A stretch of 64,000 nt of DNA. Origin: an uncultured Lentisphaerota bacterium (GTDB lineage Bacteria; Verrucomicrobiota; Lentisphaeria; Oligosphaerales; CAITYL01). Position numbers and translations under genes: made by a program. The stretch spans positions 7,084 through 71,083 of the forward strand of contig CAITYL010000398.1 of NCBI GenBank assembly GCA_903896595.1, in the 5' to 3' direction. Positions 3,048 to 45,320 of this stretch are shown here, piece after piece. Numbering within the stretch: position 1 is the stretch's first letter; every line of letters begins with the position of its first letter. The notes beneath the pieces were generated by a model. That model ran no database searches and was not told the DNA's origin. It saw only the letters and a list, made by a program, of their open reading frames with translations.

Positions 3048-3992
3048 ATGGCCAAACAACACTACGAAGCCAAAAACGAGCGCATTCGGGCCGCCTTCCA
3101 GGAGCTCCGAAAAACCCATCCTGAGCGGACGAAGCGGCGCCTGGCGCTGTCCTGGAGCAACTGGGGCTTCGGCCGGGAGCCACTGGCGGACTCCGCGGCA
3201 CGCCTCCAGGCGGCCGGCATCCGACATATCGAACTGCATGGCAACCATTACGGGCCGGACCTGGGTTACCGCCCGGCCGAAACCCTGAAGATCCTGGGCG
3301 ACCATGGTCTGGCGGTGGCCGGCGTTTGCGGCATGTTTTCGGCGGACAACGATCTCTCCAGCAACCGGGCCGGCCACCGGCAGGCCGCCCTTGATTATAT
3401 CCGGCGCGAACTCGACTTCACCGCCGCGGTGGGCGGCAGCTATCTGCTGGTGGTGCCGGGCGCGGTCGGCCGACCGGCCAAGTACGATGATGCCGAGTTT
3501 GACCGCAGTGTGGAAACGCTCCAACTGGTGGCTGACCGCTTCGTTGAGCGCGGCATCCAGGCGGCGGTCGAGCCGATCCGCGCCGCCGAGGTCAGTTTCT
3601 GCCATACCATTGCCGACGCCAGGCGCTATCTTGACGCCGTCAACCATCCCGGCATCCAACATATCAATGGCGACGTCTATCACATGCAGGTCGGCGAGGC
3701 CCATATACCTTCGGCCCTGCTGGAGGCTGGCGACCGCCTGGTCAACCTGCACCTGGCCGACAGCAACCGCTGCGCCTTGGGCGACGGCGCGCTGGACCTC
3801 GACACCCTCATCATGGCGCTGTATCTGCTGGGCTTCAACCGGGACGGCTGTTACGCCACTCCCGAACCGCTCGGCCCCGGCGGCGACCCCTACCCCGCCA
3901 TGCACGGCAAGCCGAACCCGGCGGTGCTCGACCGCCTGGTGCAACAAACCGCCACCTATTTCCGCGAACGCGAAAACGCCATCCTGGCCTGA
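3048..3992 (+). CDS. sugar phosphate isomerase/epimerase (xylose isomerase-like TIM barrel)
   Basis: Motif pattern of the AP-endonuclease-2/xylose-isomerase-like barrel: IRHIELHG, YLLVVPGAVG, AAVEPI, NLHLADSNR. Start moved from the track start (2988) to ATG 3048; AGGAG at 3029-3033. Confidence 0.8.
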   Translation: MAKQHYEAKNERIRAAFQELRKTHPERTKRRLALSWSNWGFGREPLADSAARLQAAGIRHIELHGNHYGPDLGYRPAETLKILGDHGLAVAGVCGMFSADNDLSSNRAGHRQAALDYIRRELDFTAAVGGSYLLVVPGAVGRPAKYDDAEFDRSVETLQLVADRFVERGIQAAVEPIRAAEVSFCHTIADARRYLDAVNHPGIQHINGDVYHMQVGEAHIPSALLEAGDRLVNLHLADSNRCALGDGALDLDTLIMALYLLGFNRDGCYATPEPLGPGGDPYPAMHGKPNPAVLDRLVQQTATYFRERENAILA

Positions 3993-4006
3993 TCGAGTTT
4001 CGATTA

Positions 4007-4208
4007 TGTTGGGAACCCCCTTTTAAGGAAAGGCGGTTCCCAAACCCTCCGTCAAACCTGTTTGTACCTTTTGCGGATTCCGCAGGCCGCCCATGTGCGG
4101 CAGGCCATGATTGGGACATGTGGGGCGGCCTGCGGAATCCGCAAAATGAAACAAAAGTTTTGGGAAGGGGTTTGGGGAGCACCCTTTTCCAAAAGGGTGG
4201 CCCCAACA
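4007..4208. repeat. ~200-bp palindromic MITE-like intergenic element, copy 1
   Basis: Termini tgttgggaaccccc ... ggccccaaca are inverted. The inner 21-22-bp perfect stem is ttgcggattccgcaggccgcc(c) 4071-4092 with (g)ggcggcctgcggaatccgcaa 4123-4144. Near-identical copy at 29468..29653. Confidence 0.85.
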
Positions 4209-4225
4209 AATTTGAGGTATTGCGA

Positions 4226-5806
4226 ATGAGCAAGTTAGGACAGGTTAATACCACGGACATAGCGGCGGCGATCCGGCTGGGGTGCCGGACCATGCAGAGC
4301 ATGTTCAACCGGGATGACCACGACATCCCGTTCTTCAACACCTGGGTGCGGCCAGATCCCGTCATGCAGTTCAGCGCCGCCCACAGTGAGTCGCACACTC
4401 CGGGCCGGCATCTGAATGCGCTGCTGAACGCGGAGGACGCCGCCGGCATTGAGATTGATGAAACGGCCATTGAAAAGCATCGGCGGGCCGCCTTTTTTTC
4501 CTATGGCGGCCCCGTGCCGCTGCCGCTCAACCGCCAGGTCATCGACGGGCCGCTGGTCAACTTCTGTCCGCACAATATTCGGGAAGGCTTTCACGCCCTC
4601 TATGTTTTGGTCAAATACCGGGGGGACGCACAGGCCCGCGACCTGGCGGAGCGGAGCATTGCGGCCATCTTTGAGTTCTGGACGCCCGCCGGCGGCTGGA
4701 ACCAGACACGGCTCCGCGAACTCGGCCTGAACTATCAGGAATGCCAGGGGTTCATCCATGGCGAGGCGCGGATGCTCGGGCCGCTGGTCAAGTATTACCG
4801 CGCCACCGGTTCCGCCCGGGCGCTGGAACTGGCGCTGTTGCTGAAAGAGAAGGCGATCACAGAATGCTTCCTGCCGGACGGCGAGTATGCCGAAGAACGG
4901 TTCATCACCCGGCACGCCCATTCCGTCACCTGTGTCATGTCCTCGCTGGCGCAGCTCGCCGACCTGCTGGACGACGCCTCCCTGTTGCTGCGGGTGAAGG
5001 CGTTCTATGACCAGGGGCTGTGGCAGCTCCGCGACGCCATCGGCTGGTCGCCGGAGTCCGTGGGGCAGCGGGACAGCGACCACGGCGAAGGCAACAACAC
5101 GGGCGACATCGTCGAGACGGCACTGATTCTCGGGCGCTGGGGCTGGCCGAACTACTACCAGGATGCCGAGCGGATTCTCCGGTGCCACCTGCTGCCGTCG
5201 CAACTGCAGGATGTTTCTTTCATCCAAGCTCCGCCCAACCCAAAGGGGGAAGACGGCTTGCGCGAGGTGGCCGACCGGCACCTGGGCGCCTTCGGGTTCC
5301 CCGCGCCGTACGGGCACGAGTCCGTCGGTCCGGGCCGCGGCGGCGCGGTGTCGTTCAACCTGGACATTGTCGGCGGGGTCGTTGGTTCCTTGTGCGAGGC
5401 GTATCGGGAAGCCGCCGTCAGCCGGCCGGCCGGGCACTGGGTCAATCTGTTGTTTGACCGCGAGACGGCCGGCCTCCGCGTGTACTCGCCGTATACGCAT
5501 GACGCCCTCACGATTGAGGTTCGCAAAGCCGCGCCATTGTGGGTGCGCCTGCCGGCATGGACCGATTTCAGCACCGTAACGATTGAGGGAACAGAAGAAC
5601 CGCCGCGCCGGATCAACGGCTACCTCTTCTTCGCCCAGCCGACGGTGGGGAAACCAATTCGCATCCGCTTCCCGCTGAACGAGCAACAACTGACACTTTC
5701 CGGAGCGGTGCATATCCAGCCGATCCGCGTTCACCTGCGGGGCGACGCCGTCGTGGCCATGGACAATTTCGGCGCCGACCTTACCTTCTTTGATGCTTAC
5801 GCCTAA
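4226..5806 (+). CDS. hypothetical protein, possibly an alpha/alpha-toroid glycan-active enzyme
   Basis: 527-aa product from ATG 4226 (GAGGT at 4214-4218). The track start 4118 runs through the palindromic repeat. Helix-rich sequence with HAHS ... EGNNTGDIVETALILG ... ERILRCHLLPSQ. Family not recognised with certainty. Confidence 0.7.
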   Translation: MSKLGQVNTTDIAAAIRLGCRTMQSMFNRDDHDIPFFNTWVRPDPVMQFSAAHSESHTPGRHLNALLNAEDAAGIEIDETAIEKHRRAAFFSYGGPVPLPLNRQVIDGPLVNFCPHNIREGFHALYVLVKYRGDAQARDLAERSIAAIFEFWTPAGGWNQTRLRELGLNYQECQGFIHGEARMLGPLVKYYRATGSARALELALLLKEKAITECFLPDGEYAEERFITRHAHSVTCVMSSLAQLADLLDDASLLLRVKAFYDQGLWQLRDAIGWSPESVGQRDSDHGEGNNTGDIVETALILGRWGWPNYYQDAERILRCHLLPSQLQDVSFIQAPPNPKGEDGLREVADRHLGAFGFPAPYGHESVGPGRGGAVSFNLDIVGGVVGSLCEAYREAAVSRPAGHWVNLLFDRETAGLRVYSPYTHDALTIEVRKAAPLWVRLPAWTDFSTVTIEGTEEPPRRINGYLFFAQPTVGKPIRIRFPLNEQQLTLSGAVHIQPIRVHLRGDAVVAMDNFGADLTFFDAYA

Positions 5807-5870
5807 CCGCCGCGCCCCTTGTGGTCTTCTGTTCAAAGTAGTAAAAAACCAGCAACCCCCAATTCGCCCT

Positions 5871-6542
5871 ATGAACAATCCCCCGCCGCCGTCGCTGGCC
5901 GTCTTCAGCCACTGGCAAGGAAAAAGCTGGAACGCCCTGGGCGACAGCATTACCGAGTTTGACCAGTACCAGCCCAGGGTCCAGGCGGTGCTTGGTTTCA
6001 AACGGGTTGCCAATTACGGAAAAATCGCCACGGAGATCTGCGACGGCAAAAGCCCCCAGTCGTCGGACCAGGCCCTCTACGGCTTGCCGATGAGCATCCG
6101 TTATGCCGAGATGGACACGGCCGCCGACCTGGTGACGGTGTTTGGCGGCACCAACGATTTCGGCCACAACGAACCGCTGGGCACCCTCTCCGACACCACG
6201 CGCGCCACCTTTTACGGGGCGCTCAAGGTCATGCTGGAAGGCATCATCACGGCCAACCCGGCGGCCCGGGTGGCCATTTTCACGCCGCTGCAGCGGACCT
6301 TTGCCGGCGATCCCGGAGTGACCGGCATGACCAACGCCCTGGGCCTGCAACTGGTTGATTACGCCAACGCGATCCTGGAAGTGGCGGCCAGCTATTCGGT
6401 GCCCGTGCTGGACCTCTACCGGACAGCCGGCATTTCGCCGCAAAATGCAGCCTGTTTTCTGGCCGACGGCATTCACCCCAACGCTGCCGGTTATGAACGC
6501 ATCGCAAGACAAATGGCCCAGTTTCTAAACCGCATCGCCTAG
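5871..6542 (+). CDS. SGNH/GDSL family hydrolase
   Basis: Block I GDSITE, block III GGTNDFG, block V DGIHPNAAGY. Start set to ATG 5871, after the previous stop at 5806. Confidence 0.85.
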   Translation: MNNPPPPSLAVFSHWQGKSWNALGDSITEFDQYQPRVQAVLGFKRVANYGKIATEICDGKSPQSSDQALYGLPMSIRYAEMDTAADLVTVFGGTNDFGHNEPLGTLSDTTRATFYGALKVMLEGIITANPAARVAIFTPLQRTFAGDPGVTGMTNALGLQLVDYANAILEVAASYSVPVLDLYRTAGISPQNAACFLADGIHPNAAGYERIARQMAQFLNRIA

Positions 6543-6561
6543 TACCTCATAAAGCTTAAAT

Positions 6562-6753
6562 ATTCACCACGAAGGCACGAAGGACGCGAAGTTTGATCGA
6601 AGAGTTTCGAAGAAAATTCAAGTATAAAAAGCGATCTCACATTTCGCACGGTTTGAAACATTCTGACTACTGGCTACTGAATTCTGGCTACTTTTGCAAT
6701 TTCCTCAAGCCTCTTCGATTTATCTTCGTGCTCTTCGTGTCTTCGTGGTGAAT
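6562..6753. repeat. triplet-unit hairpin element (arms attcaccacgaaggcacgaaggacgcgaag / cttcgtgctcttcgtgtcttcgtggtgaat)
   Basis: 30-nt arms at 6562-6591 and 6724-6753 are reverse complements with 4 mismatches, 3 of them G-T. Each arm is three tandem 8-nt units (cacgaagg-like). A further pairing is tcgaagag 6597-6604 with ctcttcga 6711-6718. Confidence 0.85.
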
Positions 6754-6785
6754 CAGAACGTCTTACTGTTACAAGGAACCATGTC

Positions 6786-9167
6786 ATGAGCATCAAACCT
6801 GTCCCCGCACCCGCAACCGCCTTCGCCTTGGGCGGCGAGATTGGCCGCCGGCTCGCGGCGGTGACCCAGCAGTGGCTGCTGCCGGCGCCGTTCGCCAATC
6901 CCGGCCTGCTGGAAATGTTCCGCTACCGGGACCGGCAACCCTACGCCAACCAGGTGCCGTGGGCGGGCGAGTTCGCCGGCAAATACCTGACCCATGCCGT
7001 GCAGATCCTGCGCCTCACCGGCGACCCGCAGTTGCGGGACCACCTGGCTTGGTTCGTCTCGGAACTGGTCAGCCTCCAGGCCGAGGACGGCTACCTCGGC
7101 CCCTGGCCCCAGGCGTGGCGTCTGCGTTCGGGCGCGCCCAATTGTTCCGACCTGGTTTGGGACGCCTGGGGCCATTACCACGCCATGCTCGGCCTGCTGT
7201 TCTGGCACCAGTACAGCGGCGATGCCAACGCCCTGGCCTGCGCCCGGCGCATTGGCGACCTCTTCTGCAACCGTTTCCTTGGCAACACCGGCGAAACCCT
7301 GCACGGCACCGGCTGCCAGGAAATGAACCTGGCGCCGGTCCATTCCCTGGCTTGGCTGCACCGCCTCACCGGCGAGCCACGCTATTTGGAGCTGGCGCGG
7401 CAGATCACCGGCGAGTTCGCCATCCCCCCCGCCGGCGACTACCTGCGCGCCGGCCTGGCCAATACCCCCTTTTGGCAGACGCCGAAACCGCGCTGGGAAA
7501 GCCTGCACCCCATCCAGGGGCTGGCCGAGCTCTGGCGGACCACGGGCGACGACCAATACCGCCGCGCTTTCACCAGCCTGTGGCAAAGCATGCGCGACGG
7601 CGACCGCCACAACAACGGCGGTTTCACCTCGGGCGAACAGGCCACCGGCAATCCCTACGACCGCGGCGCCATCGAGACCTGCTGCACCGTCGCCTGGTCG
7701 GCCATGAGCGTGGACATGCTGGAACTCAGCGGCGACTCGCGGGTCGCCGACGAACTGGAGTTGAGCCTGTTCAACTCCGGCCTCGGCCTGATCTCGCCCT
7801 CGGGGCGCTGGGTGACCTACAACACGCCCATGAACGGCGAACGGCAGGCCAGCGCGCACACCATCGTCTTCCAGTCCCGCGCCGGCACCCCGGAACTCAA
7901 CTGCTGCTCGGTCAACGGCCCGCGCATGCTGGGACTGCTCGCCGAATGGGCGGTGCGCGCCCGTGACGGCGGCATCGACCTCAATTACTACGGTCCTGGC
8001 CAAATCACCGTCACCACCCCGGGCGGCGCGCGGTTGCGGCTCGACCAGGAAACCGATTATCCCCGCACCTCCGGTGTCCACCTCCGCCTCGACTTAACCG
8101 CACCGGAAACATTTCCGCTACGGTTGCGCATTCCCGCCTGGTCGCGAGAAACCCGGGCCCGGCTCAACGGCCACAAGCTCGCCCAACCGGTTCCCGGCCA
8201 GTACATGGAACTCAAACGGACCTGGCAGGCTGGCGATCAGGTCGAACTGGATTTCGACTTTACCCCGCACCGCTGGGTCAATGAGAGCATGCTGACGATT
8301 GCCGACGACTGGATCACCCGGTGGCGACTGTTCGGCCTGGTCCCGCGGCGCGCCGGGGAAATGGACACCAATCTGCGGCCGGCACTCCAAATGGCGCCCG
8401 CGCTGGAAAGCCTCACGGAGATGCCGAACCGGCTGGAGATCAACGGCCAGACTTATGACGCGGTGACCGCCGAAAGCACCCATGGCATCCTGAACGGCAA
8501 GGCCGTTTTCCCGGAGTTTCAGGGGCTGCCACCGTCCCTGGTCGGGTTCACCGAACTCACCGTTGCCGGCGCCCAAACGCTTACCGTAAATTTTGGTCCC
8601 GACTGGTGGATCAGCTGGTACGTCAACGGCGAACGCGTTTTTGACGGCACCGGCATCGGGTCGTTCGACGACCGGCCGTGCCTGGTCCGGCTGCCCCTGC
8701 GCGCCGGCCGCAACGTGATCGCCTTCCAAATGGGCGGCGGCACCTCCCGCCACTGCTGGCTGAGCCTGGCCCGGGGCCGCCTCGCGGGCGAGCCGCCCAG
8801 TGCCTGCCCGCCCCACCAGCCGGTCTCCGTCTACCGCGGCCCCATCCTGCTGGCCTACGACCCGCGGTTCAATCCCGGCCGCGACTGTCCCGCCGCGCCC
8901 CCGCCGTTGCCGGCCGCCGTTCCGGAACTGACGCCGTGCGAGTGGCCGCAATGGCTCAAACCATGGCTGCTCTTCCGCACCGCTGCGGCGGACGGCGGCG
9001 CGGTCACGCTCTGCGACTTCGCCAGTGCCGGCCAGGCCGGCGGCCAGCCCTACACCAGCTGGCTGCCCGTGGCCGTGCCCAAGGCCGGCCCCCTCCACAG
9101 CGACTCCCCGTTCGCCACCGACATCAGCAGGCCAAACCACGCCGTTGGTCCGCCACCATCGCCATGA
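6786..9167 (+). CDS. GH127-like (DUF1680) beta-L-arabinofuranosidase family protein with extra C-terminal beta-sandwich domain
   Basis: ETCCTVAW and PELNCCSVNGPR resemble the Glu/Cys zinc site and Cys-Cys catalytic region of HypBA1-type GH127 enzymes (from memory). Also GEFAGKYLTHAVQ and WESLHPIQGLAELW. The last ~230 aa form an additional domain. Confidence 0.8.
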   Translation: MSIKPVPAPATAFALGGEIGRRLAAVTQQWLLPAPFANPGLLEMFRYRDRQPYANQVPWAGEFAGKYLTHAVQILRLTGDPQLRDHLAWFVSELVSLQAEDGYLGPWPQAWRLRSGAPNCSDLVWDAWGHYHAMLGLLFWHQYSGDANALACARRIGDLFCNRFLGNTGETLHGTGCQEMNLAPVHSLAWLHRLTGEPRYLELARQITGEFAIPPAGDYLRAGLANTPFWQTPKPRWESLHPIQGLAELWRTTGDDQYRRAFTSLWQSMRDGDRHNNGGFTSGEQATGNPYDRGAIETCCTVAWSAMSVDMLELSGDSRVADELELSLFNSGLGLISPSGRWVTYNTPMNGERQASAHTIVFQSRAGTPELNCCSVNGPRMLGLLAEWAVRARDGGIDLNYYGPGQITVTTPGGARLRLDQETDYPRTSGVHLRLDLTAPETFPLRLRIPAWSRETRARLNGHKLAQPVPGQYMELKRTWQAGDQVELDFDFTPHRWVNESMLTIADDWITRWRLFGLVPRRAGEMDTNLRPALQMAPALESLTEMPNRLEINGQTYDAVTAESTHGILNGKAVFPEFQGLPPSLVGFTELTVAGAQTLTVNFGPDWWISWYVNGERVFDGTGIGSFDDRPCLVRLPLRAGRNVIAFQMGGGTSRHCWLSLARGRLAGEPPSACPPHQPVSVYRGPILLAYDPRFNPGRDCPAAPPPLPAAVPELTPCEWPQWLKPWLLFRTAAADGGAVTLCDFASAGQAGGQPYTSWLPVAVPKAGPLHSDSPFATDISRPNHAVGPPPSP

Positions 9168-14438: not shown

Positions 14439-14568
14439 GTGAGCCTCTTGCAAAACTCCGATTACCGGTTCAATGCCCATCCGAGCCGCGAACGAAGCGA
14501 CCGCAGGGAGCGAAAGTGACCGGTCAAAAAGCATCCACTTTTCTTAGTTCCGTCATGATTTTTATTTT

Positions 14569-14662
14569 CCCGCAGAGGCGCGGAGGCGCAGAGAAACAGC
14601 CAAGTCAAATTTTGCCATGATGCCTGACCTGATTTTTCTCCGCGCCTCTGCGCCTCTGCGGG
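14569..14662. repeat. triplet-unit hairpin element (cccgcagaggcgcggaggcgcagagaaa / tttctccgcgcctctgcgcctctgcggg)
   Basis: 28-nt arms at 14569-14596 and 14635-14662 are complementary at 26 of 28 positions, with a 38-nt loop. Arms are three cgc(a/g)gag(g/a) units. Confidence 0.85.
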
Positions 14663-14728
14663 AGATAATTCGTAACTGAAGGTCGAATGCTGAAGGATGG
14701 CAACCGTGGGTTTTGCAAGAGCCTCATG

Positions 14729-22875: not shown

Positions 22876-23514
22876 TTAGTAGCTGATGCAATAGGGGCCA
22901 CTGTCCCAACTCCAGAGGGTTCCGTATTTGAGCCAGGTGAAATGCCCGTCCTGGAAGAGGAAGTTGCTGCCGCCCATGTGCCGGGCCGAGAAAAGGCCGG
23001 GGAGATCGGCATTGTTGCAGAACCCGCTGTTCATGTACCAATTCCGGGTGTCCCCCATGCGGGCCGTGTTACCCGGATGCTGCTCGGAAGACAGTTTGTG
23101 AAAATAGTAAGGGACACTGCCATATTTCATCCAACAATAGCTGGGGGTTCCGGTGTAATTGATGTTGATGCCGTAATTGTATTCATCAGCAGGCCGGGCC
23201 GGACAGACGAACAGGCCCTTGGCGTAGCGGAAATCCTCCCAGGAGGTGGAATTGGCGTCGTCGTCGGGCGTCAGGCCGAAGTAGGGGGCGAGAAAGTACG
23301 GCCAGTCCCAGTCGGCAGGGGAACCGCTCGGCACTAGGTCGTCGTAGTCACCCGCATACATCACGAAAGCCGTATGGAACTGCTTGAGCTGGGCGACGCA
23401 TTTGATGGACTTGGCCCGCTCCCGCGCCGACCCCAGCGCCGGCAGCAGCATGCTAGCCAGGATGGCAATGATGGCGATCACCACCAAAAGTTCGATGAGA
23501 GTGAAGCGTTTCAT
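22876..23514 (-). CDS. prepilin-type N-terminal cleavage/methylation domain protein, H-X9-DG (DUF1559-like)
   Basis: [27 protein letters not shown] from ATG 23514. C-terminal H-MGGSNFLFQ-DG is exactly H-X9-DG. Confidence 0.9.
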   Translation of the reverse strand: MKRFTLIELLVVIAIIAILASMLLPALGSARERAKSIKCVAQLKQFHTAFVMYAGDYDDLVPSGSPADWDWPYFLAPYFGLTPDDDANSTSWEDFRYAKGLFVCPARPADEYNYGININYTGTPSYCWMKYGSVPYYFHKLSSEQHPGNTARMGDTRNWYMNSGFCNNADLPGLFSARHMGGSNFLFQDGHFTWLKYGTLWSWDSGPYCISY

Positions 23515-23565: not shown

Positions 23566-23793
23566 GCAATGGGACCTATAGGACATCTGGGACCTAGGGG
23601 GGCACTAACCTGAATTATTCACGACCCAAATGATGACGTCCATTGTAGCAAAGCGATTGCATCGCGCTCTTCGAGTTGCCACATCCCGATTGGGCGGGCT
23701 ACAAGCCCTTTGCTACACTCATGAATAATCCAGGCTAACGCCCCGGCCGTGGTTTCATCCTGTGCCCCATCGGTCCCATTGGTCCTATAGGTC
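23566..23793. repeat. long nested inverted-repeat structure in the PEP-CTERM/pseudopilin intergenic region
   Basis: Outer arms gggacctataggacatctgggacctaggggggcac (23570-23604) and gtgccccatcggtcccattggtcctataggtc (23762-23793). Inner pairs are attattca/tgaataat and tgtagcaaag/ctttgctaca, plus small hairpins gcgat-tgc-atcgc and gggct-aca-agccc. Confidence 0.75.
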
Positions 23794-25761: not shown

Positions 25762-25874
25762 AATCCGCGGAACCGTGGACGCATGTTCGCGGATTCCGGC
25801 AGGCCGTCTTGAGCAGCAGGCCACGAGTGGGACAGTAGGAACGGCCGGCGGAATCCGCAAAAGGGGGTTCCCAA
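25762..25874. repeat. collapsed/degenerate copy of the palindromic MITE-like element
   Basis: gcggattccggcaggccg (25789-25806) and cggccggcggaatccgc (25842-25858) match the inner stem of the 4007 and 29468 elements. It ends with gggggttcccaa (25863-25874), which is the element terminus. An extra 8-bp inverted repeat is aatccgcg/cgcggatt. Confidence 0.65.
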
Positions 25875-25875
25875 G

Positions 25876-26226
25876 CTAGTCGCCGTCGTCCACTTCCAGC
25901 CAGTCCACGTAGACCTGCTGGCCGCGGCGGAGTTCCGTGTGCCCGGAACCGCAGGCGGTACAGCGAAAATCGGCCGGCCGCGGTGCGAACTCCGCACCGC
26001 AGTCCAGGCAGGCGGCGGCGGCGGGCTCGGGCTCGATCAGCAATTCGGCGGTGCCCCAGTTGGCGGTTTCGGCAATAATTTCCAAACACCCGCGCAACGC
26101 CTCGATTTCGACGCCGGCCAGCGTGCCCACCCGCACGGCCAGGCGGAGCAACCGCCGGCCGGCGGCCTTGGCCAGTTCGGCCTCCACCAGTTCCGCCACC
26201 CCGGTTGCCAGGCTCATTTCATGCAT
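25876..26226 (-). CDS. hypA: hydrogenase nickel-incorporation protein HypA/HybF
   Basis: MHEMSLA N-terminus (Ni site MHE) and C-terminal zinc finger CLDCG ... CTACGS. 116 aa. Confidence 0.85.
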   Translation of the reverse strand: MHEMSLATGVAELVEAELAKAAGRRLLRLAVRVGTLAGVEIEALRGCLEIIAETANWGTAELLIEPEPAAAACLDCGAEFAPRPADFRCTACGSGHTELRRGQQVYVDWLEVDDGD

Positions 26227-29322: not shown

Positions 29323-29467
29323 GATAGCATCCTCGTCGCAGAGGGTCTCGCCCAATTCAAGAACCCATCCGGGCAGCCCCGGCACAGGCAAAAGGAAATA
29401 TACCCGTGCCGGACCAGCTTTGCGTCACCGGACGATTCCCCGGATGGATGACCGTTTTGTTGGACAA

Positions 29468-29653
29468 TGTTGGGAACCCCCTTTTGAGGAAAGGCGGTTC
29501 CCAAACCCTCCGTCAAACCTGGTTGTGCCTTTTGCGGATTGCGCAGGCCGCCCCTGTCGTCCCAATCATGACCTGTCGCGCGAAAGCTGCCTGCGCAATC
29601 CGCAAAAAACAAAAGTTTTGGGAAGGGGGTAGGAAAACCCTTTTTCGGGGTGT
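29468..29653. repeat. palindromic MITE-like intergenic element, copy 2
   Basis: The left arm is almost identical to 4007..4090. The inner stem is ttgcggattgcgcaggc 29532-29548 with gcctgcgcaatccgcaa 29589-29605. The central segment is the reverse complement of that in copy 1. Confidence 0.85.
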
Positions 29654-29655
29654 CA

Positions 29656-29946
29656 TTACGTTCTCTGCTGAAGTGTCCTGAGCGCCTCCGTAAATGACTC
29701 ACACAGGTCATATAGACATGCTTGATCTTTGCCAAAATCTCTATCAAGCAATCCACCCATTCCGCCAAGAGGAACTTGCTCGAGAAGTTTGATGGCTGCG
29801 CGGTGATTCCCCCATTCGCGAAATTCTTTGATCGGTCTTTCAAATGTTTGGTCCCAACATGCCACACTGTGTTCATGTAGAAATCGAAGGAGTGCATCGA
29901 TTCGATCAAGTAGCCGTCTGACATCTGGATTAGTTGATGCGTCCAT
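29656..29946 (-). CDS. small hypothetical protein
   Basis: 96-aa ORF in a lower-GC islet. Protein-like helical composition with GGMGGLLDRDFG. No family recognised. Confidence 0.5.
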   Translation of the reverse strand: MDASTNPDVRRLLDRIDALLRFLHEHSVACWDQTFERPIKEFREWGNHRAAIKLLEQVPLGGMGGLLDRDFGKDQACLYDLCESFTEALRTLQQRT

Positions 29947-29997
29947 ATTTTCCCCCTTCGCCGGACCGAAAATTATCCATTGCCCCCGTGCGGAATG

Positions 29998-31685: not shown

Positions 31686-34600
31686 TTAATTGAACAGGAA
31701 ATTCAAATCATCTTCCGTGAGCTCGCCAGTGCGCGCGGGAACGCCCGACATGACCTCGTGAATCAGGGCGCGTTTGCGTTCCTGGAGCTGGAGGATTTTC
31801 TCCTCGATCGTGCCGCGCACCACCAGCTTGACCGACGTCACCTGGCGCAACTGCCCGATACGGTGGGCGCGGTCGGTGGCCTGGTCCTCGACCATCGGAT
31901 TCCACCACTGGTCATAGTGGATCACGGTATCGGCGCCGGTAAGATTGAGGCCCGTGCCACCCGCCTTGAGGCTGAGCAGGAACACCGGGACGCCACCCTC
32001 GCGATTGAAGCGGTCCACCCGTGCCTGACGGTCCTTGGTGGCGCCATCCAGATATTCGTAAGGGATGCCGTTCTTCTCCAACCATGGCACAATCAACTTG
32101 AGCAGCGAGGTAAACTGACTGAACAGAATCACCCGGTGCCCCGAGTCAATGGATTCGAGCAGGATTTCCTGCATCAGTTCCGTTTTTGACGATGGCGGGG
32201 TGGCGCCGACGCCGGCCAGCAGTTCCTGGGGAAGCAGGAGCGGGTGGCAGCACACCTGACGCAACCGGGTAAGCAGGGCCAGGACCTGGAAGCGCTTCTT
32301 GCGCCAGCCTTCGACCTTGGCCTGACGCACCAACTCACGCCCCGCGGTCAGGAACGAATTATAGAGCCGGCTCTGACTGTGGTCCATTTCACAATACAGC
32401 ACCTGTTCGATCTTGGGCGGCAGTTCCTGGCAGACATCCGCCTTGCGCCGGCGCAGGATGAAGGGGCGCACCCGCGCGGCCAAATGCCGCCGGGCCAGCG
32501 TCCCCGCCTCGCCGTCCGTGTCTTCATAGCGGTGGCTGAAATTCTGATGGCTGCTCAGAAACCCCGGCATCAGGAAGTCGAACAGTGACCAAACCTCCAG
32601 CAACCCGTTCTCAATCGGCGTGCCGGTGAGGATGATGCGGTGGGACGCCTGCAGTTCTTTGCAGGTTTGGGCGTTGGCCGTCTGGAAGTTCTTGATATGC
32701 TGCGCCTCGTCCAGGATGACCATGTCGAACGGCTGTTCGCGGTAGTGCCGGATGTCGCGTCGCAACAGCGCGTAAGAGGTGATGATCAGGTCCTGATGAG
32801 GCAGGTCGGCGAACGCCTCGGCGCGCTGACTGCCGTGCAGGATCATGCATTTCAGCTCGGGGGTGAATCGGTTCGCCTCGTTGCGCCAGTTTTCCAACAG
32901 GCTGGTCGGACAGACCACCAGCGAGGGCGTCTTAGCGGCGCCGCTGCGCTTGCGCCAGGCCAGCAACGCCAGCGCCTGCAGGGTCTTGCCCAGTCCCATC
33001 TCGTCGGCCAGGATGCCGTGGAACCCGCAGTCCTGCAACATGCCCAGCCAGGCCACGCCTTCCTTTTGGTACCCGCGCAGGATACGTTCCAATTCCGCGC
33101 TCAGCAGCCCCTCGGCCGGTTCGACCCGTTCCCGCAAGCGGCGGCACATGTTGATCCAGTTGGTCTGGAAGCCGGCGGCGGTCTCGCCCAGCAGTCCTTG
33201 CACGGCGGGGCCGGCAAACGTGGGGAAACGCCATTTGGTGCCGTCGCGCGACAAGGTGTCGGCGTCCAGCAACCGCAACAGGTCACGCACACTTTCGGGC
33301 ACGTGTACCAGCGTCCCGCCCCCCAAGATCATGGTGGAGCGGTGGTGGCGGATCGCCTCGAGAATGCTTTCCCAAGGCACGTCCTGGCCGTCCACGGTGG
33401 TCACCCGGCATTCCAATTCAAACCAGGAAATCGTTTCGGTGGCAGGCCGAATATGCGCTTCGGCGACCCCCGCCGAGGCACGCACGCGGAGAAACTCGGG
33501 GGTCATGAAACGGTGCCAAGACGCCGGCAGGCCTTCAAACCCGGAACGGCAGAAATCCCAAATTTTCTCGACGTCTTCCAGAAACCACTCATTGCCGGCG
33601 GCAGTCAGGCGCGGCAGAAACCCGGCTTGGCGCAACCGTTCTTCGGCGGCGGTTTCCGCCGCGGGATCCCGGCTGACCAAATGACGAAGCTGTCCAGAGC
33701 CGGACGCACCCGGATCGAAACGGAATCCGGCATAGCCAAACTCCAGACGCCCAGTCACGCCACCGTCACGCCAGTCAAAATAGGCCACCGGTTCGCAGGG
33801 AACGGGCCGCACCGCGATCACCTCGCCCGCCTGTGCCGCCACGTCACGCACCAGCACGCCGCAGGTGTCGCGCGCCCCCGCCGCCAGCAAACGTTCCAGT
33901 TCCATGGCCGGCATATCCTCGGCTTCACCCCGGAGAATAAAGCGAAAGCAGGCGCCTTCGACTTGGGCAGGCAGCCACCAAAAATGTTCATTCAACCCCA
34001 GCCACCAGCCCGTGCGCCCCGCCAGGATATGCGTTTCCGTTGCCGGCAGCACGCCGATGCCCGGCGCTTCCAACAGCGGACGTACCCGCACCATCTCCGG
34101 CGTCAGCCGGCTCACTTCCAAAACGGGCTGAATGCGTTCCGGATGCAATTCCAAGCGTTGCTCACCCAGAAAAAGGTCCGGAAAGCCGACCAAGCCGTGC
34201 AGAAATTCAGCCAGTTCCAAGACTCCCATCTCCAAGCCCCCCTTCACGGGGTTGGCATTGGCCGAGAGATAGCGCATGATCTGCCGTTCGCGCGGCGAGA
34301 AATCATTCCACACCATGCCGCCCGCGGCACTCCCATTCTCCACCAGGTGCCGGATATTGGCCGCCGCATAGGCACGTCCCTTGACGTGCAGGGTCACTTC
34401 AAACAAGGCCACGGACCAGCGCCGGTCGGCCACCAGGCCGTCCCGCAGGATGCGCAGGACCAAGTGGGGCGGTTGTTCCGCATGGGGAAATAAATGGCGC
34501 ACCGACGTGGCCTGAAACATGGCCGTGGTACTGTCCGGCGTCGCCGCCGCCCGCGCCAGCGGGCTCTCCTTGACGGCGGGTTGCGCGTCCGTCTTCAGGG

Positions 34601-34931
34601 TGCCCGCCGTGGCGGCACCGGTGGGCCACCAGCCCTCCCAGCCGCCCGGGGCGTCCGGATCTTGCTGAAAAAATGCCAGTAACGCCGCTACGGAATGGGC
34701 ACACCAGCCCCGGGGTCGGCCGCATGAACAGGACGGCGCCGCCGCTTCCTTGACAAAGGAAATCTGGCTACGCTCAAAACGTCCCCGCTCGTTGGCCACC
34801 ATGCCCTGCAAGATCTTGGCATTCGGTCGGCGCAACTCCAGCACGGCTCCGGTACGAAAGAGCTTGAGCCCCTCCTCATACACGGCCCGGCCGGAAAAAC
34901 CCGTGATCCAACGTTCAAATTCCGACTGCAT
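31686..34931 (-). CDS. SWIM zinc finger-SNF2 family helicase
   Basis: N-terminal SWIM CSCGRPRGWCAH. SNF2 motifs ADEMGLGKT, DEAQHIKN, LTGTPIEN. Helicase C FLLSLKAGGTGLNLTGADTVIHYDQWWNP ... DRAHRIGQ. Confidence 0.9.
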   Translation of the reverse strand: MQSEFERWITGFSGRAVYEEGLKLFRTGAVLELRRPNAKILQGMVANERGRFERSQISFVKEAAAPSCSCGRPRGWCAHSVAALLAFFQQDPDAPGGWEGWWPTGAATAGTLKTDAQPAVKESPLARAAATPDSTTAMFQATSVRHLFPHAEQPPHLVLRILRDGLVADRRWSVALFEVTLHVKGRAYAAANIRHLVENGSAAGGMVWNDFSPRERQIMRYLSANANPVKGGLEMGVLELAEFLHGLVGFPDLFLGEQRLELHPERIQPVLEVSRLTPEMVRVRPLLEAPGIGVLPATETHILAGRTGWWLGLNEHFWWLPAQVEGACFRFILRGEAEDMPAMELERLLAAGARDTCGVLVRDVAAQAGEVIAVRPVPCEPVAYFDWRDGGVTGRLEFGYAGFRFDPGASGSGQLRHLVSRDPAAETAAEERLRQAGFLPRLTAAGNEWFLEDVEKIWDFCRSGFEGLPASWHRFMTPEFLRVRASAGVAEAHIRPATETISWFELECRVTTVDGQDVPWESILEAIRHHRSTMILGGGTLVHVPESVRDLLRLLDADTLSRDGTKWRFPTFAGPAVQGLLGETAAGFQTNWINMCRRLRERVEPAEGLLSAELERILRGYQKEGVAWLGMLQDCGFHGILADEMGLGKTLQALALLAWRKRSGAAKTPSLVVCPTSLLENWRNEANRFTPELKCMILHGSQRAEAFADLPHQDLIITSYALLRRDIRHYREQPFDMVILDEAQHIKNFQTANAQTCKELQASHRIILTGTPIENGLLEVWSLFDFLMPGFLSSHQNFSHRYEDTDGEAGTLARRHLAARVRPFILRRRKADVCQELPPKIEQVLYCEMDHSQSRLYNSFLTAGRELVRQAKVEGWRKKRFQVLALLTRLRQVCCHPLLLPQELLAGVGATPPSSKTELMQEILLESIDSGHRVILFSQFTSLLKLIVPWLEKNGIPYEYLDGATKDRQARVDRFNREGGVPVFLLSLKAGGTGLNLTGADTVIHYDQWWNPMVEDQATDRAHRIGQLRQVTSVKLVVRGTIEEKILQLQERKRALIHEVMSGVPARTGELTEDDLNFLFN

Positions 34932-35000
34932 GAGTTCCCATTCACCGTAAAGTTGGATTCGTGCGTCTCGCGCGATACCCGCCCCACCCCCGCTCCGAAT

Positions 35001-35366
35001 CTACTTGACAACCGGTGGTGGAACCGCCTTCAACAAGCCACCCGTGGCGCCCACCGTGGGCCACCAGCCCTCCCAACCGTCCGGCGCCACCGGTTCCAGC
35101 TGGATAAACGCCAGCAAAGCCGCGATGGAGTGAACACACCAGCCTCGCGGCCGGCCGCACGAACAGGAGGGCGCGGCCGTTTCTTTCATAAACGAAATTT
35201 GGCTGCGCTCAAAACGACCGCCTTCGTTGGCTACTAGGCACTGCACAATCTTGGGATTGGGACGGCTTAGTTCCAGCACGGCTCCCGCGCGAAAAAGCTT
35301 CAGTCCCTCCTCGTACACGATGCGTCCGGAAAAACCCGTGATCCAGCGTTCAAATTCGGATTGCAT
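35001..35366 (-). CDS. stand-alone SWIM-domain protein, paralog of the SNF2 helicase N-terminus
   Basis: 121 aa from ATG 35366 (MQSEFERWITGFSGR...). Roughly 85% identical by eye to residues 1-105 of 31686..34931, including CSCGRPRGWCVH. Confidence 0.7.
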   Translation of the reverse strand: MQSEFERWITGFSGRIVYEEGLKLFRAGAVLELSRPNPKIVQCLVANEGGRFERSQISFMKETAAPSCSCGRPRGWCVHSIAALLAFIQLEPVAPDGWEGWWPTVGATGGLLKAVPPPVVK

Positions 35367-36454: not shown

Positions 36455-36512
36455 CCGTGATCTTTCTTCCCCAACCCGACCACAACTCAAACCGTGAAAT
36501 TAACCGCCGCCC

Positions 36513-36584
36513 AACCCCTCAACCCCTCAACCCCTCAACCCCTCAACCCCTCAACCCCTCAACCCCTCAACCCCTCAACCCCTA
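36513..36584. repeat. 8-nt tandem repeat (aacccctc)x8 plus one degenerate unit; G-rich (gaggggtt)n on the minus strand
   Basis: Eight perfect units at 36513-36576 and aaccccta at 36577-36584. Lies 5 nt after the stop of 36589..37347 and 59 nt upstream of the DAHP synthase ATG. Confidence 0.95.
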
Positions 36585-36588
36585 CCCC

Positions 36589-37487: not shown

Positions 37488-37573
37488 GCCCGGGTGGCGG
37501 AATGGCAGACGCTACGGACTTAAAATCCGTTGATCGCAAGGTCGTGCGGGTTCGACTCCCGCCCCGGGCACCA
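37488..37573 (+). tRNA. tRNA-Leu (anticodon UAA)
   Basis: Acceptor gcccggg/cccgggc. Anticodon stem-loop acgga-cttaaaa-tccgt (UAA). Long variable arm. T arm gcggg-ttcgact-cccgc. Encoded CCA at 37571-37573. Confidence 0.9.
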
Positions 37574-39672: not shown

Positions 39673-39697
39673 AACCTTGTAAAACTTAAAACGTCGG

Positions 39698-39778
39698 ATT
39701 CACCACGAAGACAAATCGAAACGATGTTTTTGGTGCTCATTTTTTGACCGCGGATTACGCGGATTAACGCGGATAAAA
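39698..39778. repeat. degenerate triplet-unit arms (attcaccacgaagaca ... gtttttggtg; ccgcggattacgcggattaacgcggataaaa)
   Basis: The 39698-39740 segment is a collapsed version of the attcaccacgaag hairpin, followed by ctcatttttt. The 39748-39778 segment is a lone three-unit arm (cgcggatta) with no partner nearby. Confidence 0.6.
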
Positions 39779-40094: not shown

Positions 40095-41342
40095 TTGACC
40101 CGGCGCTGGATGACGCCTGACTCCAAGTATCACGGACAGCATCCCTACGGCGCTCAGTATATCTGGGATACCCTGTTCATGCTCGAACCGCTCTGCCTGC
40201 TTCCCGGGCAGACCGAGGTTGTCCGAGAGGTGCTGCGCAACTTCTGGGAGTTCCAAGATGCCTGGGATGCCATCGTCCCGGAACACGCTCGCGGTATGAT
40301 CCAACATGGCTTCCACCCCGATGCCTTTCTGCCCACCGCCTGCAAAGGCAACAGTTGCAGCCCTTGGCTGGCCTGGGGCGTGGAGCGGATTTACAACCAC
40401 ACTGGCGATGAAACCATGGCGCATGAAGCGTTGCCGCACCTGGAACGCTACCACGACTGGTACTGGCGCGAGCGCGACCTCGATGGCATCGGCCTCATCG
40501 CCCCCGGCGCCTATGGCACCGACCAGGTGCAAGCGATGCGCGACGACTCCGGCTACGATTTTGCCGCTGACATGGACGCGCTGGCCTACATCCAGCATCC
40601 GCGTTTCCCAGAGCGCGGCGCGGCGTACGGCAATCTCTACGGCGTCACCAATACCGCCTACGTCGTCCACGCCGAACGCTGCCTCCAGCGGCTGGCGGCA
40701 AAACTGGGAGACCACGCCATGGCCGCCCGTCGCGACAGCCACCTTCAAAAAGCCGTGGCGGCAGCCCGGGAGAGAATGTGGAATGAGGAGACCGGCATGT
40801 TCCATACCCTCCGCCGCGACGGTGGCAAAGTCCCAACCTTGACCATCGGTGCGTTCATGATGCTTCTGGCGCAAGTTCCAACCCCGGCGCAGGCGGAGCG
40901 CATTCTCGGAAATTTGCGAACGCCGAATTGGCTGACCCCGCTGCCGATGCCCACCGTTGGCCGCGGCGATCCCAAATGGGAGCCCGCCACCATTGGCATG
41001 TTGCCAAACCCGCCCGTGCGGCTGGACCACCTCGGCCAGGCCTACAACATGTGGCGCGGCGACGTCTGGCCACCGTGCAATTACCAAGTCGCCATGGGTG
41101 CAGCGGCGTACGGTGCCACCGATCTTGCGGCCCGCATCTGCGATGCCACGGTGATGAACGCCATTCAGTGGGACGACGTCAACGAGCGCTACTGTTGCGA
41201 TACCGGCCGCCCGCTCGGCCCCTCGGACTACGGCATGTCCGCCTGCGTGTTGAGCATGGTCTATGACGGCCTGCCCCAGCGCTATGGCGCAACCAATACA
41301 TTCACCACGAAGCCACAAAGATCAGGACAGCGTTTCTCATGA
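40095..41342 (+). CDS. GH63/trehalase-like six-hairpin glycoside hydrolase
   Basis: YIWDTLFMLEP, SPWLAWGVERIY and NMWRGDVWPPCNY fit GH63/MGH-like (alpha/alpha)6 enzymes. The frame is open from 39891 with no ATG/GTG/TTG before 40095, so the true N-terminus is uncertain. The antisense 441-aa ORF was rejected. Confidence 0.75.
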   Translation: MTRRWMTPDSKYHGQHPYGAQYIWDTLFMLEPLCLLPGQTEVVREVLRNFWEFQDAWDAIVPEHARGMIQHGFHPDAFLPTACKGNSCSPWLAWGVERIYNHTGDETMAHEALPHLERYHDWYWRERDLDGIGLIAPGAYGTDQVQAMRDDSGYDFAADMDALAYIQHPRFPERGAAYGNLYGVTNTAYVVHAERCLQRLAAKLGDHAMAARRDSHLQKAVAAARERMWNEETGMFHTLRRDGGKVPTLTIGAFMMLLAQVPTPAQAERILGNLRTPNWLTPLPMPTVGRGDPKWEPATIGMLPNPPVRLDHLGQAYNMWRGDVWPPCNYQVAMGAAAYGATDLAARICDATVMNAIQWDDVNERYCCDTGRPLGPSDYGMSACVLSMVYDGLPQRYGATNTFTTKPQRSGQRFS

Positions 41343-44639: not shown

Positions 44640-45320
44640 ATGCGCAACAACATGATCGCCTTCAAACGCCCCTTCACGCTGATCGAACTCTTGGTGGTGA
44701 TCGCGATCATCGCGATTCTGGCCAGTTTGCTGTTGCCCGCTTTGGGCAAGGCCAAGGACAAGGCCAATGCACTTGCCTGCGGGAATAATCTGAAGCAACT
44801 GGGGGTGGCATTTACCTTGTATGCAAATGATTTCAATGAACGTTTCGTGCCAACCTATGATGGTAATTGGCCCCAAGCATGGCCGGTTCTCATCGACAAC
44901 TATATGCCGGTGGCAGGGTTCACCGCGGGTCAACCGGCCAAGGCAACCAGCTTGACCTGCTCGGGCATCGCCAGCCATCGTGCCGACTACGACTTCGGCA
45001 GCACCGGAAAAAAATACGCCTGCGACTACGGCAAAAACTGGTACGCCGGCAATACGGCCGACGGCACGTGGTGTTCGTTCTTGCGCGAGTCCGCATACCC
45101 GTCCGAGCACCTTTATGCCTGGGATGCGCTTTGGCTCTCCGTTGGCCCGTGGAACGCCTTAAACAATGGCGGCATGGGCGAGGCGGATATTTTCACCTAT
45201 CCGCATGGCGGGCGGCTCAACCAACTATTCGTTGATGGCGCGGTCGCCGTGTCTACCTTGCGCTACCGGTTGACTGCCGACACCAACTACCGCGCCTATT
45301 TTGGCCGCGACCTCCCCTGA
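44640..45320 (+). CDS. prepilin-type N-terminal cleavage/methylation domain protein, H-X9-DG (DUF1559-like)
   Basis: [36 protein letters not shown]-terminal [12 protein letters not shown]. Confidence 0.9.

Follow-up and report, generated by a model that had tools for sequence, protein, structure and literature searches.

Two copies of a nested-palindrome repeat of roughly 200 bases lie in the window, the whole stretch of 64,000 nucleotides analysed here, and they carry the same central loop of about 30 nt in opposite orientations, which raises the question of how so short a segment comes to be turned around while its surroundings keep their direction, and of whether the turn reflects a switch, a step in propagation or a mutation. 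The element is laid out as a terminal hairpin A, an asymmetric arm L, a central hairpin, an arm R, an optional module C and a terminal hairpin B, where the loop of the central hairpin is not palindromic and is closed by a perfect stem of 19-25 bp. Copy 1 spans positions 4008-4207 and copy 2 positions 29469-29628, and a third copy is truncated. In the following, the loop orientation found in copy 1 is referred to as M and that found in copy 2 as P. The parts of the three copies are:

4008 to 4044, + strand: copy 1, terminal hairpin module A (GTTGGGAACCCCC-loop-GGCGGTTCCCAA), its own local hairpin in folding
4045 to 4068, + strand: copy 1, left outer arm L (CCCTCCGTCAAACCTGTTTGTACC), asymmetric, sets the orientation of the element
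4069 to 4092, + strand: copy 1, left arm of the inner stem (TTTTGCGGATTCCGCAGGCCGCCC), perfectly palindromic over 24 bp with 4123-4146
4093 to 4122, + strand: copy 1, loop in orientation M, CAGGCCATGATTGGGAC on the arm-forward strand
4123 to 4146, + strand: copy 1, right arm of the inner stem, pairs with 4069-4092
4147 to 4170, + strand: copy 1, right outer arm R (TGAAACAAAAGTTTTGGGAAGGGG)
4171 to 4207, + strand: copy 1, terminal hairpin module B (TTGGGGAGCACCC-loop-GGGTGGCCCCAAC), its own local hairpin in folding
25786 to 25874, - strand: copy 3, truncated, inner hairpin (25786-25862) fused to the first half of module A (25859-25874)
29469 to 29505, + strand: copy 2, terminal hairpin module A
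29506 to 29529, + strand: copy 2, left outer arm L, oriented as in copy 1
29530 to 29551, + strand: copy 2, left arm of the inner stem, in which C>G at 29541 is matched by a compensating G>C at 29596 of the right arm
29552 to 29585, + strand: copy 2, loop in orientation P, GTCCCAATCATGACCTG on the arm-forward strand, reverse complement of the copy 1 core
29586 to 29607, + strand: copy 2, right arm of the inner stem
29608 to 29628, + strand: copy 2, right outer arm R (AACAAAAGTTTTGGGAAGGGG)
29629 to 29652, + strand: copy 2, degenerate remnant at the expected site of module B, of uncertain assignment as the alignment to copy 1 decays here

The opposite orientation of the two loops, which are reverse complements of one another, is most easily followed through their 17-nt core, CAGGYCATGATTGGGAC. 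This core lies on the + strand at 4101-4117 in copy 1 and on the - strand at 29559-29575 in copy 2, and shuffled sequence yielded 0.34 matches to it even with three mismatches permitted. In the partial copy 3, the core is found on the + strand at 25817-25833 with two mismatches, and the loop reads as P when module A is placed on the left; the fusion in this copy looks as if it had been left by a deletion between two CCTTTT repeats. The outer arms, on the other hand, are asymmetric and run in the same direction in copies 1 and 2. Their left sides (3999-4096 and 29460-29557) share 92% identity in direct register and only 74% in reverse-complement register, CCCTCCGTCAAACCT is located on the + strand in both, and both have the right arm AAACAAAAGTTTTGGGAAGGGG in common. 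Scored for arm orientation, copy 1 gave 22/23 forward against 9/9 reverse, and copy 2 gave 22/22 against 8/9. The coordinates and sequences of the oppositely oriented loops are exactly those given in a preliminary description of this DNA, which had also recognised that the flanking arms are collinear and had placed the flip between the inverted arms of the stem. The last of these points can be refined. Because the inner stem, TTTTGCGGATTSCGCAGGCCGC, is perfectly palindromic over 24 bp in copy 1 and over 19 bp in copy 2, the flipped segment may be anything from the loop alone up to the stem, the loop and the second stem arm together, or about 75 nt, and a flip of the loop or of the whole stem-loop-stem unit would leave an identical sequence.

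Folded as single-stranded DNA, copy 1 forms three hairpins (-69.6 kcal/mol, z = -8.8), which are A, a central rod made up of L, the inner hairpin and R (4045-4170), and B. Taken alone, the inner hairpin reaches -36.4 kcal/mol (z = -8.8) in copy 1 and -26.0 kcal/mol (z = -6.1) in copy 2. Units of the element start with GTTGGG and the inner stem starts with TTTTGCGG. The terminal inverted repeats read GTTGGGRMC...GKYCCCAAC, and in many copies they are surrounded by a further outer inverted layer; the flanks often read AT/GTTGGG...CCCAAC/AT, a pattern that may be a target-site duplication or, just as well, an extension of the palindrome. Given the GTTRRRY-like ends, an integron attC site was considered and rejected, since the two ends stand in the opposite order and a purine occupies the seventh position.

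The element belongs to a large family. A search with a pattern built on both stem arms matched at least 40 loci among the matches listed, all of them in one Lentisphaeria MAG (JBAZJM01), as well as 91 stretches in JGI metagenomes, most of which come from the MAG's own assembly (Ga0265297) and the remainder from about ten other assemblies. The family has at least 70 copies in one Lentisphaeria MAG, with more in about ten metagenomes. The organism from which the window derives is related to that of the MAG: positions 3614-9120 are syntenic with the locus L008 at 88-90% identity, and the ArgH protein encoded in the window is 88% identical to a Lentisphaeria MAG protein. The family is a mosaic that includes an optional module C between R and B, minimal hairpins in which A and B are fused, and truncated copies. 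In 11 copies, a second central hairpin (H2), unrelated to the one found in the window (H1), sits between the same L and R arms. An Rfam scan of the window matched only a tRNA, and on the element regions it returned nothing at the gathering threshold and only generic hairpin matches far below it. Literature searches turned up no described Lentisphaerae repeat family, and we are apparently dealing with an undescribed, modular, nested-palindrome family of intergenic repeats from an uncultured Lentisphaeria lineage.

With this many copies at hand, the loop can be followed across the family. Every copy was oriented by its asymmetric arms and its loop was then scored. From 105 distinct H1 hairpins, 91 scorable copies were left after removal of duplicates, and these fall into 58 in state P and 33 in state M (binomial p = 0.011 against 1:1); only three loops were too diverged for the state to be called. 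The preliminary description had suggested such a survey of all genomic copies and had regarded unrelated loops in other copies as an argument against its reading. As the other copies show the same two states rather than unrelated loops, this objection falls away.

These data are short-read assemblies throughout, however, and it is conceivable that de Bruijn assemblers cannot orient a loop within a perfect inverted repeat, in which case the orientation in any given contig would be arbitrary. The k-mers of the hairpin interior are indeed identical in both states, contigs often break inside the element (as at L042), and the contig carrying P0121 has no called gene downstream of the flanking gene. 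Moreover, among the first 40 loci one loop reading was in excess on the + strand of the contigs (33:9), which suggested an assembler effect. This excess is gone in the remaining loci, so that the full set stands at 53:39 (p = 0.17), and assemblies other than Ga0265297 lean the opposite way; the assembler effect was dropped as an explanation, and we keep it as a caveat. Against arbitrary orientation also speaks the length of the perfect repeat, which is only 19-25 bp. The final k-mers usually employed by metagenome assemblers, and the reads themselves, are longer than this.

A further argument comes from the way in which the loop state is passed on. The state is heritable, being stable both at a locus and in daughter copies. 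When loop sequences are compared with their orientation normalised, 64 of 92 copies agree in state with their nearest neighbour, compared to 48.4 ± 5.6 in permutations, of which 8 in 2000 reached 64. The loop state is thus phylogenetically clustered. In addition, five orthologous locus pairs from independent assemblies, with flank identities of 85-99%, agree in their state without exception (chance of agreement about 0.045). One of these pairs is formed by copy 1 and its orthologue at L008, both of which are M. Clustering and agreement across independent assemblies are not what an arbitrary choice by the assembler would produce, and we regard such an artefact as very improbable. Conversely, that none of the five orthologous pairs differs in loop state is not improbable at the rate derived from paralogues. 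No contig pairs covering the same locus with opposite loop states were seen either.

The loci of the two window copies add some detail on their relatives. At the copy 2 locus, the element is absent from a relative at 88% identity (L041), in which the upstream genes are different; in a relative at 98% identity (L042) the end of the contig falls inside module A; and relatives at 82% identity have a 138-nt spacer. A metagenome scan for the unique flank of this locus gave no match. At the copy 1 locus, synteny with a relative (L138) is lost directly after the gene, and no empty site for either window locus was recovered from L041 and L138.

Heritable as it is, the loop state has changed repeatedly. 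At least five clusters of hairpins with ≥90% identity hold both states. The clearest case is that of a P copy at L137, which is a 100% reverse-complement match to M copies at L004, L098 and L133 and has arms nearly identical to theirs. All of these siblings show the same asymmetry at the junctions, with a run of five T at the left junction and one of three A at the right (TTTTT/AAA), and since these junctions are kept in both states, the breakpoints are located within the palindromic stem. At L011, two copies lie 1.3 kb apart on one contig, with 98%-identical hairpins in opposite states and arms that point in the same direction. Across the family, discordant pairs make up a fraction of 0.18 where hairpin identity is ≥95.5%, and of about 0.45-0.48 where it falls below 90%, compared to an equilibrium value of 0.47.

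It could be argued that nothing was inverted at all in these cases, and that the central hairpin, be it H1 or H2, is a small mobile unit that inserts between L and R either way round. As the stem is palindromic, a reversed insertion would resemble a flipped loop. H1 is in fact found without its arms at L025 (position 5062), at L033 (position 3493) and in the window (25786-25862), and these armless hairpins suggest that the central hairpin may be a separately mobile module. The occupation of one position in the same arms by two unrelated hairpins points in the same direction, as does the mosaic make-up of the family, with its optional C module and its A/B fusions. An empty site between L and R, on the other hand, is found in 0 of the 78 distinct L arms that have an R arm within 220 nt: 67 of these enclose H1, 10 enclose H2 and one encloses an internally deleted H2, while for the remaining 25 occurrences of the L arm no R arm was found. 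Independent insertions would also have to reproduce the exact 5T/3A junctions in L137 and its near-identical M siblings, and each of the at least five clusters of mixed state would need a fresh insertion of a matching hairpin. We therefore consider assembly from inserted modules an unlikely origin of the two loop states, and return to inversion of the enclosed segment.

What the inverted segments share is their structure. Flipping depends on this structure and not on the sequence of the loop or of the stem. The unrelated hairpin H2 is flipped in 2 of its 11 copies (L023 and L025), that is, in a ratio of 9:2. At the orthologous locus L026/L056, the terminal GTTGGG...CCCAAC repeats enclose an inversion of the entire element of ~255 nt, module C included, and the loop state relative to the arms is unchanged by this larger inversion. 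Likewise, inverted-repeat arms border the inverted loop segment on either side, with a perfect 19-25-bp stem around every loop. The pairing of the stem is kept even where its bases vary. Positions 11-14 of the right stem arm, which were left free in the search pattern, are paired in 90-92 of 92 copies, position 15 shows 13 double changes from C-G to A-T versus 7 unpaired cases, and the stem of copy 2 contains one compensated exchange of C-G for G-C.

The loop difference is thus probably a structural mutation, an occasional and passive inversion across a perfect stem, in a repeat family that has so far gone undescribed. Several routes could lead to it. A switch of template between the strands during replication could invert the segment enclosed by the stem, and so could recombination of one stem arm with the other within a molecule. 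The product would be no different if another copy, aligned via the palindromic stem, acted as donor in an antiparallel gene conversion. Judged by their sequence products, template switch, recombination and conversion would look the same. Since the stem reads alike on both strands, the event would be scarless, and only the loop would appear turned. The flipped state would then be passed on stably at its locus and to daughter copies, with flips rare enough for the state to be heritable and yet frequent enough for many recurrences within the family. The inversion may take place in a resident copy or while a copy is being made, two possibilities that look alike because no orthologous pair differed; given that 0 of 5 pairs differ, it might even occur only during copying or gene conversion and not at a resident locus. 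That the outcome is as expected from recombination or template switching across the stem had been proposed in the preliminary description, and both the breakpoints within the stem and published precedents (PMC8794818, PMC6824564) are in line with it.

Inversion of the loop, and of the whole element, might also be tied to the propagation of the element itself, if a single-stranded hairpin were copied by fold-back priming and gave rise to daughters in either orientation. We hold this to be quite improbable, but were it the case, the two-state pattern would have been left behind by a way of mobilising bacterial palindromic repeats that has not been described, and not by background mutation.

Finally, the flip could be programmed, either as a switch operated by a site-specific invertase or as a step of a hairpin-primed, rolling-hairpin-like propagation. 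A polymorphism of two states that are both frequent would fit such a system, as would flips in two types of hairpin and at the level of the whole element, and a discordance that saturates at modest divergence. However, no recombinase adjoins any of the window copies, whose neighbours are a sugar-phosphate isomerase/epimerase homologue, ArgH, SpoU, IF-2B-like, HypA, LacI and ORFs without a Pfam match, and a Pfam scan of six ORF translations from the window gave no match to a transposase family. Between closely paired copies, too, no transposase was found, the ORFs there being AraC-like or, as we presume from our own reading of the sequence, SprT-like. An invertase would furthermore have to recognise about 100 dispersed copies and two unrelated stems, and a loop of 30 nt contains no unit of promoter and gene. 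The orientation of the loop is independent of the direction of the flanking gene, which is the same in 36 cases and opposite in 37, and the corresponding numbers for the arms are 40 and 33; both comparisons use gene calls that are still crude, although the gene caller was retrained on called genes. The stability of the loop state between orthologues does not fit a switch that flips to and fro, and the ratios of 58:33 and 9:2 differ from the 1:1 expected of obligatory hairpin transfer.

In the flip/flop of the AAV ITR of parvoviruses, a sequence enclosed by a palindromic stem likewise occurs in two orientations, which in AAV arise via a hairpin intermediate. Parvoviral flip/flop is an obligatory process of linear genome ends and yields the two forms at about 1:1. 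The hairpin studied here, in contrast, is internal to the chromosome, its states are found at 58:33 (p = 0.011) and 9:2, and the state is inherited. Hence a programmed flip of either kind appears extremely improbable to us, and the suggestion in the preliminary description of an invertible-segment switch or of hairpin-processed replication is not supported in view of the missing recombinase, the identical states in 5/5 orthologues, the 36 and 37 gene directions and the ratios other than 1:1. Nothing in these data speaks for a new mechanism of regulation or replication, and no regulatory function is implied.

Closer parallels to a passive inversion exist. In plastid genomes, small inversions known as "minute" or "flip-flop" inversions occur in non-coding hairpins (Kelchner & Wendel 1996; PMC6824564). 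They are recurrent and homoplasious, with A and B forms at each site, and have been explained by recombination or flip-flop at the stem (PMC6824564). As in the present family, perfect stem arms enclose the inverted loop, and the inversion leaves the flanks as they were. The plastid cases concern single-copy loci compared across species, mostly with loops of 5-50 nt and short AT-rich stems, whereas here the two forms are spread over ~100 paralogous bacterial copies with a GC-rich stem of 19-25 bp, and 0 of 5 orthologous pairs are flipped. Template switches that invert hairpin loops have been described in rRNA and miRNA genes (Mönttinen & Löytynoja 2022, PMC8794818; Löytynoja & Goldman 2017, PMC5453318). 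A switch between strands reverses the loop "in place", with the stem preserved or made perfect, in bacterial rRNA as well, and template switching also gives rise to compensatory stem changes of several bases (PMC8794818). Loops turned in place and compensatory changes in the stem are both found in our family. The bacterial loops reported to be inverted by template switching are mostly of 4 nt and at most of 7-8 nt and belong to functional RNAs, compared to ~30 nt in this element, which, unlike the rRNA and miRNA cases, is an intergenic DNA repeat with no evidence of an RNA function.

By analogy to these systems, the observation is best regarded as a new case of a structural mutation of known class, one that stands out for its unusually many copies and its large loop. 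About 100 near-identical hairpins in one genome constitute an unusually rich natural sample of inversions at short inverted repeats in a bacterium. It includes two cores that are unrelated, a loop of 30 nt and a nested inversion of the whole element, and it could be used to estimate the rates and sequence requirements of template switching or of recombination between short inverted repeats. There is also a practical side to it, as flipped loops inflate the apparent divergence of repeat copies and can mislead alignments and the classification of repeat families.

At the same time, the copies document a new modular family of palindromic repeats in the poorly studied Lentisphaeria, which shares features with two kinds of known elements. 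Like the Correia elements of Neisseria and other bacterial MITEs, its members are short and non-coding, have terminal inverted repeats, occur in many intergenic copies and form mosaics of subtypes. Unlike in Correia-type MITEs, the variable feature is the orientation of the core and not a set of end variants. REP, BIME and REPIN elements are mobilised by RAYT transposases (PMC3116915, PMC3733652), and their REP units are defined by a GTAG or CGTC tag (PMC3733652). The present family resembles them as a set of high-copy extragenic palindromes with a 3' location, inverted doublets that form hairpins, compensatory changes and mosaicism, while its units are longer than those of REP and REPIN elements and are nested in three layers. 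A GTAG or CGTC tag is absent from the end of the unit, CGTC being present only inside arm L, and we therefore do not file the element as a REP or REPIN. Flipping of the loop is not mentioned in the REPIN paper (PMC3116915), where neither the word "loop" nor the word "flip" occurs, or in a review of repeats (PMC3184786). The genomic location is shared most clearly: REP-type repeats are mostly found downstream of genes and between convergent genes (PMC3733652), and the copies of the Lentisphaeria family, too, lie mostly 3' of genes, with 12 located between convergent and 2 between divergent genes.

Comparison of one orthologous locus in two assemblies (L026, 6120-6850, and L056, read as its reverse complement), whose flanks are 85-87% identical, showed that the entire element of ~255 nt has been turned round between its terminal GTTGGG...CCCAAC repeats. 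The inverted stretch takes in module C, and the loop state relative to the arms is unchanged. We also observed a second central hairpin, H2 (...CGCGGCGGGGCGCTTCAGCCACAAGC-loop-GCTTGTGGCTGAAGCGCCCCGCCGG...), which is unrelated to the central hairpin H1 and is enclosed by the same L and R arms at the following loci and at 7 more:

L013, 2260-2526: element with H2
L019, 2991-3207: element with H2
L023, 2910-3122: element with H2
L031, 6641-6856: element with H2

The H2 loop is flipped in two of 11 copies, and at L070 (position 2014) H2 carries an internal deletion.

In the hairpin of copy 1 (window 4090-4126), the differences from its orthologue at L008 are concentrated at both loop-stem junctions, where the window reads CCATGTGCGG and ACATGTGGGG and L008 reads TCGCGTGCAA and ACGGCAGGGG at the same places. 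With these junction changes the perfect stem grows from 22 bp in L008 to 24 bp in the window, and a CATGTG direct repeat arises; they look like a multi-base change of the template-switch type. The spacer upstream of argH that contains copy 2 (29323-29997, 675 nt) is entirely different in sequence in L041, the 88% relative, which places copy 2 in a stretch that was remodelled recently. The same spacer holds an uncalled ORF of 96 codons (29656-29946, minus strand), for which no Pfam match was found.

In copy 3 (25786-25874), which is truncated, the inner hairpin runs straight into the first half of module A, the arrangement expected from a deletion between a pair of CCTTTT direct repeats. Its neighbours are:

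25876-26226, minus strand: hypA, on one side
on the other side: a lacI-family gene

At L001 (3952-3987), a minimal hairpin of 36 nt, GTTGGGAACCCCCTTTTCCCAAAGGGTGGCCCCAAC, consists of the left half of A and the right half of B; it represents either the family's basic unit or what a collapse left behind.

Among the first 40 loci (L001-L040, from the first genome scan), 33 of 42 copies have the same loop reading on the contig plus strand, even though the orientation of a contig is expected to be arbitrary. The other loci do not show this unexplained excess, which may reflect sampling.

The window holds other repeats as well. A different palindromic family (6562-6753), with arms of 60 nt that are 78% complementary, is rich in CACGAAG/CTTCGTG motifs and has partial relatives elsewhere in the window (39675-39718 and 41300-41327). 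An isolated strong inverted repeat, TCCCGCAGAGGCGCGGAGGCGCAGAGAAA, occupies 14568-14663 (arms 29 nt, 93% complementary, spacer 38 nt). About 10 units of the tandem octamer CCCCTCAA (36507-36586) lie ~900 nt upstream of a tRNA gene (37488-37570), the sole Rfam match of the window. The 300-nt direct repeat at 34544-34843 and 34979-35278 (74% identity), within a long minus-strand ORF (~31689-35000), is probably an internal protein repeat. Further repeat families may be represented by two distant sites that match in inverted orientation over 96 nt (23411-23506 and 44672-44767, 76%) and by a local inverted repeat with arms of 29 nt (23573-23793).
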